Source of the DNA: Chrysomallon squamiferum
Taxonomy: Eukaryota > Animalia > Mollusca
Reading direction: 5' to 3'
Length of the DNA: 64,000 bases
Assembly: GCA_012295275.1 (NCBI GenBank)
Contig: CM022669.1
Location: 17,112,001-17,176,000, forward strand
In this document: one piece after another, positions 34,336-39,240 of the stretch
Layout of the letters: each line of letters begins with the position of its first letter
How positions within the stretch are numbered: position 1 is the stretch's first letter
Position numbers and translations under genes: made by a program
The notes under the pieces: model-generated
The model's database searches: none
Told to the model about the DNA's origin: nothing
The model's input: only the letters and a program-made list of their open reading frames with translations

Positions 34336-34448
34336 ATGTATGTGTTTGATGCTCAGACGTACTCCTACTTTGGATTTATTCTTGGTATCATTGTTTTCCT
34401 CCTGTATGGATTCACTCTCTTCCTCACCTTGACATCCCTCATTGGCGG
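34336..34448 (+). CDS. UGCG: UGCG-like coding exon 1 (N-terminal TM)
   Basis: TTTCAG acceptor at 34332, ATG 34336; MYVFDAQTYSYFGFILGIIVFLLYGFTLFLTLTSLIG. Confidence 0.88.
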
Positions 34449-37400
34449 GTTTGTACTGTTATTATTATTACTATTATTATTATTATTATTATTATTATTA
34501 TTATTATTATTATTATTATTATTATTATTATTATTATTATTATTATTATTATTATTATTATTATTATTATTATTATTATTATTATTACTACTGTTAATAT
34601 TATTATTATTATAATTATTATTATTATTATTATTATTACTACTACTACTACTACTACTACTACTACTACTTTATTATTATTATTATTACTACTATTATTA
34701 CTACATTATTGTTGTTGTTGTTGTTCTTGTTATTATTAAAGATTTATACTTCTTCATTGCCTGCCATTTATACTCTAAAGTATTGCAAAAATTCACAAAG
34801 ATTGGTAATTTTACAAAAACTATTTTAATTATTTTCAATATTCTGTCCCACAAAATAAACAAAAGAAAACTACAAAACAATATAAATGAAAACCTCAGTC
34901 TTTTATGACATTTTGCAATTATTAGAGATGACTTTCGATTTTTGGTTGTGCAGAGTTTGTTCACAGGTCATAACAGAATATGTTCCATAATTTTAAAAAT
35001 AATTTTTCTCTTTAAGAATATTATCAGAATTGATTATTTCTAAAAATTATAAAATCGTAAACAAAATTAAAATCACTTTTGTTACATCCATTAGTATGAA
35101 TAGACAGACAAGGGAGATAAGTCACGTTCACTAAATGCTGATGTATAATTACCTTTTCCTGAAAGATAAATAAATGAACTATAATCTTTATTTTTATTTT
35201 CCAGGTACTTCCACTTCCATCGAAAGAGTGATCCATCACTGCTGGGAGATGATTTGCCTGGTGTGTCCATCGTGAAACCCCTGATGGGAGTTGATCCCAT
35301 GCTCCTGGACAACCTAGAAAGCTTTTTTAAATTACAGTATCCAGAGGTATTGTAAATGAGTTTGATACTAAAATGTTATTTGTTAATTGTCATAAAATAG
35401 TTCTCTTCCTTTTTTTTTATATGTGTGTGTGTGTGTGTGTGTGTGTGTGTGTGTGTGTGTAAAATGTAGAGATAGAGATGAATAGATGCTTGACATATTT
35501 GAAATGCATTGATTATTATTTCATTGTTACTGACAGCTTTTCTTTTCTTTTCTTTTTAAAATCAATTTGGCTACTGTTTTATTTGAAGTAGTTTTTTTTT
35601 ATTATTATTATTACTACAATTACCATTATTATTATCATCATCATAATTATTATTAGTAGCAGTACTAGTAGCTATGTTATTATTATTGTTATCATCATCA
35701 TCATATTATTATTATTATTATTATTATTATTATTATTATTATTATTATTATTATTATTATTATTATTATTATTATTATTATTATCATCATCACCATAATT
35801 ATTAGTAATAGTAGTACTAGTAGTATTGTTATTGTTACTGTTACTAACATTATCGTTATCATCATCACAATTGCATTTATTATTATTGTTTTGTTATCCT
35901 TGTTTTCAGTATGAACTGCTGTTCTGTGTACAGGACAGTGAAGATCCATGTATCAACCTGCTGCACCAACTTGCTGAGAAATACCCCAAAACAGACTGGC
36001 AGCTTTTTGTTGGTGAGCAGAATATCTGTGTAAAAATACTTCAACTTCAAGTGAATATTAACCGTCTTAGCTGGCATAATATCAGTATGAAAGAAGGACA
36101 AATAGTTTTTATTTATAGATACTATCTGTACCTTCATAATCTACAGTTACGTAGTTTAATGTATGTGACTAAGAACTATAGATAATGGAGTAGGTGGAGA
36201 AATAATGTTAGATACCACTTACCAGTTTAAAAAATAAAATAAAAGAATAAATTTAAACCAAATAAAAATAGAAATTGAAGTAGTAGTTTTTCAAATATAA
36301 ATGATAACAATATATATACCATACTTTAATGTATGTATCTGTAATTATCATTGTTATTGTATGTGTAAGTAAAGTGAGTGTTTGGTGTTTTGTCAGGTGG
36401 CAAAGAAGGCATCATCAATCCCATGGTTCACAACATGACCCCTGGATATGAGGCAGCTAAATATGAATATGTGTGGATTAGTTCCAGCAGGGTCAAAGGT
36501 CAGTTTGATTTGTTATAGCTCTTCTGTGTAGAATTAGAAATCTGTTCAAGTAAATAATTTAAAAGGATTTTATATTTTTATAAATTATTATTATTATTAT
36601 TACTATTGTTGTAGTAGTTGTTAGTTATTATTATTATTATCATTAGTATTCATATATTTTATATATAAGGTGCCTTTTATATAAATAAAATCAATAAATT
36701 TACTTACAATCTCATAAGGGAATAGTTTTGTTGTTTAGCCTTTAGTTTTGTTTTCAATATTTTTAGATTGTGTTTTCAATATTTTTAAACATTTTTTAAA
36801 ATTTTATATTTATTATTATTATTATTATTATTATTATTATTATTATTATTATTATTATTATTATTATTATTATTATTATTATTATTATTATTAATATTGT
36901 TAATATTATTAATAATTTTGTTTTAGTTAATGATGAAATTATCATGGACATGGTGTGTAAACTTCAGAAGCCAAACGTGGCTCTTGTTCACCAGATGCCT
37001 TTCATGATGGACCAGCGAGGTCTTGGGGCCACCATTGAAAAGGTGAACACTTCATTTCTCTAATGCATACACTTAAATTATTACCTTTTACCTATTTTCT
37101 TCATTTGCAAGTAATCTTCCAGCATCTAATGAATATTGAGCACTGCAACTGTCTTAGTGTTTTTTGTTGTTGTTGTTGTTGTTGTTATTATTTTTTTGTA
37201 TTTCAGATTTATTTTGGATGCCTACTTCAGCGTTTCTATCCTGCCTTCAGTTTTCTGTCACAGTGTTGTGTGACAGGAATGTCATACATAGTTAAGAAGT
37301 CACTTCTAGACCAGGTCAATGGGTTGGGGTGGTACGGCCGATTCCTGGCAGAAGATTTCTTCCTCACAAAAGCTCTGCATGACAGGTATGGAACAGGGAG

Positions 37401-39240
37401 AGTTGTTTTTGTTTTAAGAAATATTTGCAAACACATCACTTATTTTCCGGAAAAGGGGAGATAACCCCAGTTGTCGTTTTAAGAAATGTTTACAAATATG
37501 TTGCCTCTTTTGATTTGATGTTTGCTGGGTCTTTTTAAATTTTTATATTTTATCATCATCTTTATAAAATCATATCTATATCTAGATATATATGGAATAA
37601 AAATTATTATTGTTGTTTTTTTAAATTATTATTTCTTCTTATAATTTTAATATGGTTCTGCTGTAAACAGACACAACTACTTATAAAGTATATATATTTA
37701 AGTGTTCATTCACACAATTTTTGAAATTTTTATGCTTCATGCTGGTTTAATGTCTTCAATTGACAGGGGATACAAGTTAGTGCTATCAGCCTTCCCTTGT
37801 CTTCAGAACACACCTCCAACCTCTCTGTGTGGATACATCAACAGAATGGTCAGGTATGTCTTCTAGTATTCATCTTATTTTTCAGTATTCAATGTGCAAA
37901 TTATTTCCCATTATATTCAGTGTATTTGTATGGATACTTGACATCTTGAATACCTTTAATGACCACTTCTTTTGAACACTTAGCAGTCACATTTGCAATC
38001 AAAATACATTTGAGTTCTAATAGAATTTTTGGTTTGTTTTGTCATGTTGTCATTAGTCCATATGATGACTGGTTTGATAATTTTATAATAATAATACTAC
38101 CAAAACACAGCCAAATACTTTTAATAACTTTAATAGTAGTAGTAGTAGTAGTAGTAGTAGTAGTAGTAGTAGTAGTAGTAGTAGTAGTAGTAGTAATAGT
38201 AGTAGTAGTAGTAGTAGTAGTAGTAGTAGTAGTAGTAGTAGTAGTCTTTTTAAATGTATTCTCTTTTCACAAACAAATAAATAATTCCAGGGTTGAGATG
38301 TGTAGGTGACTGAAGAAATTTTAAAATATACTGACATTAATTTTTTTTAAAATAATTTTATTTCATTTCTGTGACAGGTGGTTGCGGTTGAGGTTCAACA
38401 TGCTGCCAGTGGTGAGCACAATTGAACCATTCATGGATGTCTACCCACTCGGCCTGCTCAGTGCATGGAGCTTGCACCACTTCTTTGGAACAAACCCATT
38501 CTACTTCATAATCATTCACCTCATTTTATGGATGACCATTGATTACATGCTGTTGATGAATGCTCAGGTAGCTTGCATTTTTGATCAGTTATGTTATATA
38601 TTGAGAACACAGAGTATAGTAATTATAAATTTCTTGTCCAGAGGAACAATTATTTTTATTTTATTATTATTTTTTTTATACCTAAGAATATTTTCTTTGT
38701 ATAATCTTAGAATATTGAATTGGCTACAGTTCTGTAATTTGAAAACAAGCCCGAAGATTGATGGATCACGGGATCATATCTTCTGAGTGAACACAAATGG
38801 GTTGTTTCCATTATGGCTAGTGTGACATTAGTGTTTTATTAAATGTGGTTTGTTTTCCTGTGTATGGGAAGGTGATTATTTTATTAGAACTAATCATTAA
38901 GAGTACCCAGTGAAATGGTTACAGTCTATTTTCTTTCCCATATCATCATTATTGTTTTCACGCTAATATTTATTGTTAATACTGCAGAAAATATTTTAAT
39001 AATATTTTGAAAATTTTACAGTTAAAAAAATGTATTGGTTTTATTTTTCAGAACGGTCCCCTCTGTTTTTCAAAGATTGTGTTTGTGATGGCTTGGCTGT
39101 TGAGAGAGTGCCTGCCAATACCCATATTTGTAGTGGCTTTGTTAAAACCACACACTGTTGTGTGGGGCAAGAGAATTTTCTATGTGAAATATGGAGGCCA
39201 AACAAAACTTATTGAAGACAAAACAGCTATTCCATTCTAA
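34336..39240 (+). CDS. UGCG: Ceramide glucosyltransferase-like protein (UGCG/GT21 family), atypical active site, 9 coding exons, 406 aa
   Basis: Exons 34336-34448, 35205-35346, 35910-36012, 36397-36498, 36927-37042, 37207-37385, 37767-37853, 38378-38567, 39052-39240; all GT-AG and phase-consistent, 1221 nt. Motifs LPGVSIVKPLMGVDP, YELLFCVQDSEDP, CVTGMS, LAEDFF, RMVRWLRLR, AWLLRE. The symbol indicates family; this may be a paralogue. Confidence 0.92.
34459..34700. repeat. (TTA)n/(CTA)n compound microsatellite at the start of the intron after UGCG-like coding exon 1
   Basis: Direct reading. Confidence 0.95.
35205..35346 (+). CDS. UGCG: UGCG-like coding exon 2
   Basis: YFHFHRKSDPSLLGDDLPGVSIVKPLMGVDPMLLDNLESFFKLQYPE. 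Confidence 0.94.
35910..36012 (+). CDS. UGCG: UGCG-like coding exon 3
   Basis: YELLFCVQDSEDPCINLLHQLAEKYPKTDWQLFV. Confidence 0.94.
36397..36498 (+). CDS. UGCG: UGCG-like coding exon 4
   Basis: GGKEGIINPMVHNMTPGYEAAKYEYVWISSSRVK. Confidence 0.93.
36927..37042 (+). CDS. UGCG: UGCG-like coding exon 5
   Basis: VNDEIIMDMVCKLQKPNVALVHQMPFMMDQRGLGATIEK. Confidence 0.93.
37207..37385 (+). CDS. UGCG: UGCG-like coding exon 6
   Basis: IYFGCLLQRFYPAFSFLSQCCVTGMSYIVKKSLLDQVNGLGWYGRFLAEDFFLTKALHD. Confidence 0.94.
37767..37853 (+). CDS. UGCG: UGCG-like coding exon 7
   Basis: GYKLVLSAFPCLQNTPPTSLCGYINRMV(R). Confidence 0.93.
38134..38244. repeat. (TAG)n microsatellite
   Basis: Direct reading. Confidence 0.95.
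38378..38567 (+). CDS. UGCG: UGCG-like coding exon 8
   Basis: WLRLRFNMLPVVSTIEPFMDVYPLG...DYMLLMNAQ. Confidence 0.93.
38763..38878 (+). mobile_element. Degenerate SINE fragment in UGCG-like intron 8
   Basis: GGATCACGGGATC..TGTGGTTTGTTTTCCTGTGTATGGGAAGGTG resembles the same SINE body. Confidence 0.4.
39052..39240 (+). CDS. UGCG: UGCG-like coding exon 9
   Basis: NGPLCFSKIVFVMAWLLRE...VVWGKRIFYVKYGGQTKLIEDKTAIPF then TAA. Confidence 0.93.
   Translation, partial: NGPLCFSKIVFVMAWLLRECLPIPIFVVALLKPHTVVWGKRIFYVKYGGQTKLIEDKTAIPF

Follow-up and report, generated by a model that had tools for sequence, protein, structure and literature searches.

A conserved sister subfamily of ceramide glucosyltransferase in spiralian animals, with an intact and expressed member in Chrysomallon squamiferum

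Introduction

Human ceramide glucosyltransferase (UGCG; CAZy family GT21, Pfam model PF13506, structure 26qf_A) is the closest described relative of the gene discussed here. Its reported active-site residues are D92, D236, and R272-W276 (PMC13347695), and its D144A mutant synthesizes no glucosylceramide (GlcCer; PMC7018848). In this work we describe a UGCG homolog of the mollusc Chrysomallon squamiferum, found in a stretch of 64,000 nucleotides (assembly GCA_012295275.1, contig CM022669.1, positions 17,112,001 to 17,176,000 of the forward strand), which is called the window throughout. The homolog shares with UGCG the N-terminal helix, the GT-A domain, the D1 motif, the Glu-Asp pair, the RxxRW motif, and the C-terminal membrane part, but it differs by K124 to Met/Leu, D144 to Thr/Ser, G146 to Arg/Lys, and further fixed changes, and it belongs to a separate clade.

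Three other systems are relevant for comparison. The Pgt enzymes of Agrobacterium tumefaciens and Mesorhizobium loti are members of the same family GT21 and set a precedent for the use of galactose, but their acceptor is diacylglycerol (PMC8231724). Vertebrate UGT8 would share its product, galactosylceramide (GalCer), with the gene in the window if the reading favored below holds. However, UGT8 is unrelated to UGCG in sequence and has its active site in the lumen of the endoplasmic reticulum (PMC8684486), whereas the window gene is a GT21 member with a predicted cytosolic site, so that any likeness in function would be convergent. Finally, the GT2 membrane synthases (hyaluronan synthase (HAS), cellulose synthase, and PcManGT) are the best structural matches and have the same D,D,D,(Q/R)xxRW layout, but HAS and the cellulose synthase CesA8 keep both the Lys/Asp pair and the DxD motif. 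In databases, members of the clade are named ceramide glucosyltransferase or hypothetical. No description of the subfamily was found among the papers listed in full-text searches (most subscription journals, including those with the older glycolipid chemistry, lie outside this scope), nor was a paper on the human UGCG structures (26qf) found there.

Results and Discussion

Gene Integrity and Active-Site Residues

The coding sequence spans positions 34336-39240 of the plus strand, which also carries all exons named below, and its nine coding exons (1221 nt) encode 406 amino acids followed by a stop. After the exons had been cut out by their coordinates, all eight introns showed GT..AG ends. Five public runs contain the stretch. 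In four of them (X1 to X4, RNA from one study), contigs span exons 2 to 8 and leave out the introns. The joins 3-4 and 6-7 were present as listed joints, join 5-6 as two pieces that adjoin within a single record, and joins 2-3, 4-5, and 7-8 as loose ends reading into the neighboring exon. The clean 406-aa open reading frame with canonical splice sites, proposed in a preliminary description from the letters of the window, was borne out by the exon cutting and, for exons 2 to 8, by the contigs. No contig had an alternative letter at the codons for M129, S149, and L199, and the three differences seen were all synonymous. From run X5, no contig matched exons 3 and 4, though a filter may drop contigs. 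Because the RNA contigs agree on both splicing and codons, the homolog is a spliced, intact gene and not an assembly error. That the substitutions might be private to this assembly or belong to a decaying gene, as the preliminary description had allowed for, is refuted by the contigs and by the occurrence of the same motifs in 75 other proteins.

Regarding family membership, exon 6 by itself scored 31.1 bits against PF13506 (curated cut-off 21.7), and the Gigantopelta aegis ortholog (P0001) scored 129.6 bits. For this ortholog, which is 81% identical to the window protein, Pfam returned GT21 and GT2 models only, and the GT1 family of the UGT8 type was not among them. P0001 aligns over its full length to the human chain 26qf_A (E 4e-97), and human residue numbers were counted along that alignment.

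The changed site is located in coding exon 4 (36397-36498), where M129 (ATG at 36423) takes the place of human K124 and S149 (TCC at 36483) that of D144; the RNA contigs agree with this exon. A third change, R151 (36489), corresponds to human G146. Exon 6 (37207-37385) holds L199 (CTT at 37225) at the site of H193, together with the GMS motif and E241-D242, the likely catalytic base. All three codons named in the preliminary description (ATG, TCC, and CTT) were called correctly. The remaining catalytic frame is retained, as had also been described: D97, in the D1 motif of exon 3 (35910-36012), equals human D92, D242 equals D236, and R278-W282 (RMVRW), which begins in exon 7 (37767-37853) and ends in exon 8 (38378-38567) ahead of membrane helices, equals R272-W276. 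Accordingly, the window protein has the D1, D3, and (Q/R)xxRW motifs of canonical UGCG without its K124 and D144, and it combines Met/Leu at 129, Thr/Ser at 149, and Arg/Lys at 151 with membership of the clade described in the following.

Conservation, Phylogeny, and Taxonomic Range

The comparison set was assembled from three protein searches (10 matches, the best 120 of 166, and the best 120 of 750) and a profile search of 50%-identity representatives (best 150). After five fragments had been removed from the 213 search proteins, the remaining 208 were aligned with the window protein and 20 hand-picked representatives, giving 229 rows. Identity to seed sets, computed outside the motif columns, divided these into 76 variant rows, the window protein included, and 153 canonical rows.

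Among the variant rows, position 129 is occupied by Met (68) or Leu (8), position 149 by Thr (53) or Ser (22) with one gap, and position 151 by Arg (74) or Lys (1), again with one gap; none of the 76 has an equivalent of either K124 or D144. The canonical rows show Lys in 151 and Asp in 151 of 153, the exceptions being the truncated Mya model P0161 and the long-branch protein P0308. All 76 variant rows keep E241, D242, R278, R281, and W282, and D97 is found in 72 of 72. The preliminary description had suggested that NPMVHN and WIS[ST]SR might mark a conserved clade, and NP[M/L]V together with W-x-S-[S/T]-S-R does define a strongly supported one. Its broader proposal, an uncharacterized GT21 subfamily in which the nucleotide-sugar side has changed while the putative catalytic base is kept, is supported by this clade and by the invariant D242. 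The same description also listed the replacement of the donor-binding His among the active-site changes, but this one is not diagnostic: canonical rows have His in 90, Gln in 53, Leu in 4, and other residues in 6 cases (n = 153). Since the canonical rows themselves vary in this way, loss of H193 was rejected as a clade marker.

The coupling of the changes extends across the family. In 145 new family-wide representatives, both sites were present in 134, with Lys and Asp kept together in 127, both missing in seven, and no mixed case. All seven have an Arg two residues past the Asp site, although one of these rows (P0315) is poorly aligned. Six are clade members and the seventh is P0308. This divergent 438-aa GT21 protein, encoded on an ENA contig, has Cys for Lys, Ala for Asp, and Arg at +2, and sits on a long branch that was not placed with the clade; it may represent either an independent origin of the triple switch or a deep clade member.

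Mean identity over 136 genus pairs was 55.2% for the variant and 55.9% for the canonical proteins (r 0.85), and these nearly equal values point to equal constraint on both. Positions identical in at least 95% of rows number 66 in the variant clade and 58 in the canonical set, the two sets differing in depth, and 38 of them are common to both. The window and Gigantopelta proteins differ at 3 of 88 clade-conserved sites and at 62 of 273 others, while variant and canonical copies of the same genus are 32-44% identical. Other changes fixed in the clade surround the pocket, namely F73 to His, R376 to Gly, T191 to Cys/Gly/Ala, and an invariant Tyr at 219. The window protein departs from the clade majority at four of the 88 conserved sites, F78 among them. 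Residue 78 (35323) is Phe in the window and Gigantopelta proteins and in canonical rows, and His in 68 of 71 clade rows; the Phe of this snail lineage is an apparent reversion.

Several copies stand out individually. A Babylonia duplicate (P0283/P0361), which belongs to the variant clade but lies outside the 76-row set, has lost the A-E-D motif, so decayed variant copies do exist. In Biomphalaria pfeifferi, a lineage-specific variant duplicate (P0103) has His at the H193 site. The tapeworm Anoplocephala has three variant copies (P0061, P0072, and P0073), two of them with S-E-D for A-E-D. A third molluscan group of UGCG paralogs (P0147, P0151, P0153, P0159, P0172, and P0175), with NGK for NPK and Gln at the His site, was seen in chiton, octopus, limpets, and oysters.

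The phylogeny was calculated with IQ-TREE (C20) from 37 rows without five motif columns, 17 of 54 rows having been left out for reasons of time or long branches. With the motif columns removed, the variant clade received a support of 100/100. Its sister group comprised all the other canonical rows of bilaterians, themselves united at only 92/84, and it did not group with the canonical UGCG of spiralians. A constraint uniting it with 11 canonical rows of spiralians was rejected at a p-AU of 0.017, for a group named after earlier trees and a stem as long as 0.55. The placement suggests a duplication in early bilaterians, and because of this long stem and the choice of the tested group we give that age as a suggestion.

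The variant rows with a named source belong to gastropods, bivalves, a chiton, an octopus, the annelid Owenia, two nemerteans, Macrostomum, a monogenean, trematodes, and cestodes. No arthropod, nematode, deuterostome, cnidarian, or sponge is among these named sources, in a set that includes many unnamed rows and no genome-by-genome search of those groups. Canonical UGCG occurs beside the variant in 17 genera, in 14 of them in the same species according to the source names, and in the comparison set, the genus Schistosoma is represented by a single copy of either kind. The variant is hence not the sole UGCG ortholog in these other species, a possibility that the preliminary description had raised. 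All 10 named cestode rows (eight species) are variant, with no search aimed at a canonical cestode copy. No second UGCG lies within the 64-kb window, which does not show its absence from the genome; likewise, no canonical Gigantopelta UGCG was found among the best 120 of 750 rows, which does not show absence either. Taken together, the gene is intact and belongs to an expressed, strongly conserved UGCG sister subfamily of spiralian animals.

Structure and Catalysis

An AlphaFold2 model of the Gigantopelta ortholog (pLDDT 93.3) shows a GT-A domain between one membrane helix at the N-terminus and further ones at the C-terminus. Its closest folds were PcManGT, hyaluronan synthase, and cellulose synthase (Z 17.9-21.2, 12-17% identity); the human UGCG structures were not among the rows of the fold search, one library of which ends in April 2026. 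A profile search reached cellulose synthase over the D3-RW part only, and the ESM Atlas returned generic GT21 clusters only. In the model, NPM opens a helix (128-138) ahead of a strand (144-148) that ends at position 149. By motif position and spacing, the sites of M129 and S149 would correspond to the Lys of GT2 enzymes and the first Asp of their DxD motif, with 20 residues between the two sites here and 24 in CvHAS and CesA8. In CvHAS, Lys177 and Asp201 form a salt bridge (PMC12987647), in CesA8 the Lys sandwiches the uridine (PMC10592267), and in the chitin synthase Chs1 the second Asp is missing as well (PMC10409773).

Given these correspondences, we propose a coupled switch, in which the salt-bridged Lys/Asp pair would be lost while an Arg would arise in the place of the second, metal-binding Asp of DxD, opposite the diphosphate. 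The clade-wide change of G146 to Arg, which the preliminary description had overlooked, likely compensates for the loss of Lys and Asp. D242 would still deprotonate the 1-OH of ceramide, and the sugar would be transferred with inversion at the cytosolic face. Since D144A inactivates human UGCG, the canonical frame needs this Asp for the plain reaction, and in the variant either the switch compensates or the reaction has changed.

If the triple switch were fully compensatory, the protein would be a second glucosylceramide synthase that still uses UDP-glucose, and serves another ceramide pool, tissue, or compartment. In line with this, the two clades share 38 positions of at least 95% identity, the Lys and Asp are mostly on the nucleotide side in related enzymes, and the named database rows all read ceramide glucosyltransferase or are unnamed, although such names are automatic. 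We nevertheless consider this unlikely, as the D144A result, the joint retention of Lys and Asp in 127 of 134 family-wide representatives, the canonical copy alongside in 17 genera, and the ring of further clade-fixed changes around the pocket all speak against it.

The loss of a residue whose mutation kills the human enzyme also fits a pseudoenzyme, which would bind ceramide or canonical UGCG and regulate or flip without any transfer, and hetero-oligomers of UGCG have in fact been reported (PMC13347695). Yet molluscs, an annelid, nemerteans, and flatworms all keep the likely catalytic base, D1, and RxxRW unchanged; the Asp has been replaced by a fixed T/S-S-R and has not drifted; and the clade has 66 positions of at least 95% identity against 58 in the canonical set, at unequal depth. 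This makes a pseudoenzyme improbable. Owing to the fixed replacement and the invariant catalytic base, we favor an enzyme, and the sequences point to a membrane glycolipid transferase that is likely still active, with a predicted donor other than UDP-glucose.

The Transferred Sugar

Our favored reading, to which we assign a probability of roughly 0.45, is that of an active UDP-galactose (UDP-Gal):ceramide galactosyltransferase unrelated to vertebrate UGT8. Galactose as the sugar is the weakest step, and it is inferred from a single kind of evidence, the match between the range of the clade and the animals with GalCer-based glycolipids. The subfamily would then provide a GT21 route to GalCer that is independent of UGT8, and possibly extend GalCer to the beta-1,6 neogala chain. 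A fuller account, held a little more tentatively, would start from an ancient UGCG duplicate that is seen only in spiralians and perhaps predates the protostome split, and whose pocket was rewired to give a cytosol-facing GalCer synthase, convergent with UGT8 and possibly processive (beta-1,6-galactosyl). Such an enzyme would stand at the start of the pathways to the neogala and spirometo antigens of tapeworms and would supply flukes, annelids, and marine snails with their GalCer; in cestodes, it might be the only GT21 member.

GalCer-based lipids are known from annelids. Schistosoma mansoni makes both GalCer and GlcCer and carries two putative ceramide glucosyltransferases (PMC4122909). The neogala series of Taenia and Echinococcus and the spirometo core of Spirometra are built on GalCer (PMC10476572), and both cores are also tabulated elsewhere (PMC4393008). 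For neogala in marine snails, Turbo and Chlorostoma are cited through the titles of references in PMC10476572. Within GT21 itself, the bacterial Pgts favor UDP-Gal and build di- and triglycosyl lipids (PMC8231724). The terms looked up in PMC6076252, PMC3510090, and PMC5327563 gave nothing on ceramide.

Several points weigh against galactose. Three alphaproteobacterial GT21 homologs on plasmid records (Shinella, Sinorhizobium, and Pannonibacter), which are less than 30% identical and not shown to be Pgt orthologs, keep both NPK and the D2 Asp. As they do so in a branch reported to prefer UDP-Gal, the loss of Lys and Asp is by itself probably no signal for galactose, and we do not use it as a signature of that sugar. 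The Lys and Asp of CvHAS and CesA8 lie mainly near uracil, ribose, and metal (PMC12987647, PMC10592267). By analogy, the changed residues would be nearer to the nucleotide than to C4 of the sugar, and their change could mean a different nucleotide and not a different sugar. The equivalence to HAS itself was drawn from motif position and spacing and not from a residue-level superposition. A UGT8-like GalCer synthase, for which no search was made, may also exist in spiralians; insect UGT50 is the reported ortholog of UGT8. The nerves of protostomes are reported to hold GlcCer only.

An active transferase of another specificity, which we regard as unlikely though worth keeping in view, would account for the same changes. 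It could be an elongating enzyme that adds beta-1,6-galactose or beta-1,3-glucose to GalCer, one with a GDP-sugar or UDP-xylose as donor, or one with a lipid acceptor other than ceramide. The nucleotide may differ, given that the Lys changed here flanks the uracil in CvHAS and CesA8; the bacterial GT21 Pgts are processive (PMC8231724); and the neogala and spirometo cores require elongating enzymes. With respect to other sugars on ceramide, beta-mannosylceramide occurs in freshwater bivalves. On the other hand, the protein retains its membrane helices and its acceptor motif, RxxRW, a product elongated in the cytosol would presumably need to be flipped, and the sections consulted in a parasite review give no mannosyl- or xylosylceramide for flatworms (PMC10476572).

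Exon Structure and Neighboring Genes

Exon 1 (34336-34448) encodes the N-terminal transmembrane helix, modeled as residues 6-41 in the Gigantopelta ortholog, exon 2 (35205-35346) the KPLMG strand of the GT-A domain, exon 5 (36927-37042) the HQMP motif, and exon 9 (39052-39240) a membrane helix, the C-terminal strands (W382-G383, which is W-R in most canonical rows), and the stop. The count of nine given in the preliminary description stands for the coding exons, but the gene probably has more, with the ATG exon being joined from upstream. A splice acceptor (34332/34333) directly precedes the ATG, and by arithmetic the contigs of X1, X2, and X3 all start exactly at 34333, as expected if several upstream exons join at that acceptor.

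One candidate for such an exon, likely alternative, was recognized from sequence features at 32259-32376 (plus strand), in frame with the main open reading frame and flanked by an AG acceptor and a GT donor. In a tblastn search, the N-terminal extension of Gigantopelta isoform X1 matched it weakly (E 0.039). Translation from its in-frame ATG at 32326 would add 18 amino acids. Another ATG, at 32268, is out of frame, and the reading frame that it opens overlaps the main start. A search for further upstream coding exons found none, and N-terminal extensions vary among clade members and are not conserved.

Elsewhere in the window, a single open reading frame for a GT32-type glycosyltransferase (PF04488, 355 aa) is located at 13596-14660 on the plus strand, approximately 20 kb upstream of the UGCG homolog; it falls within a mollusc-rich Atlas cluster and has IMT1-like neighbors. 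Further features are a coatomer epsilon exon (PF04733) at 5196-5477 on the minus strand and two intronless open reading frames for rhodopsin-family G protein-coupled receptors (PF00001) at 47003-48226 (minus) and 54546-55448 (plus).

Conclusions

A whole clade that is labeled ceramide glucosyltransferase is thus without the residue whose loss kills the human enzyme, and the human UGCG structures (26QF series) now exist for comparison. Should the variant indeed make GalCer, it would give a name to the first enzyme on the route to the GalCer-based glycolipids, which are immunogenic antigens in echinococcosis (PMC10476572), and it would represent a second origin of GalCer synthesis. It would also be a drug target in helminths, with a pocket unlike that of the host UGCG and no relation to the host UGT8. 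Whichever explanation holds, be it a new reaction, catalysis without D2, or a conserved pseudoenzyme, it would be new for the GT21 family of animals.

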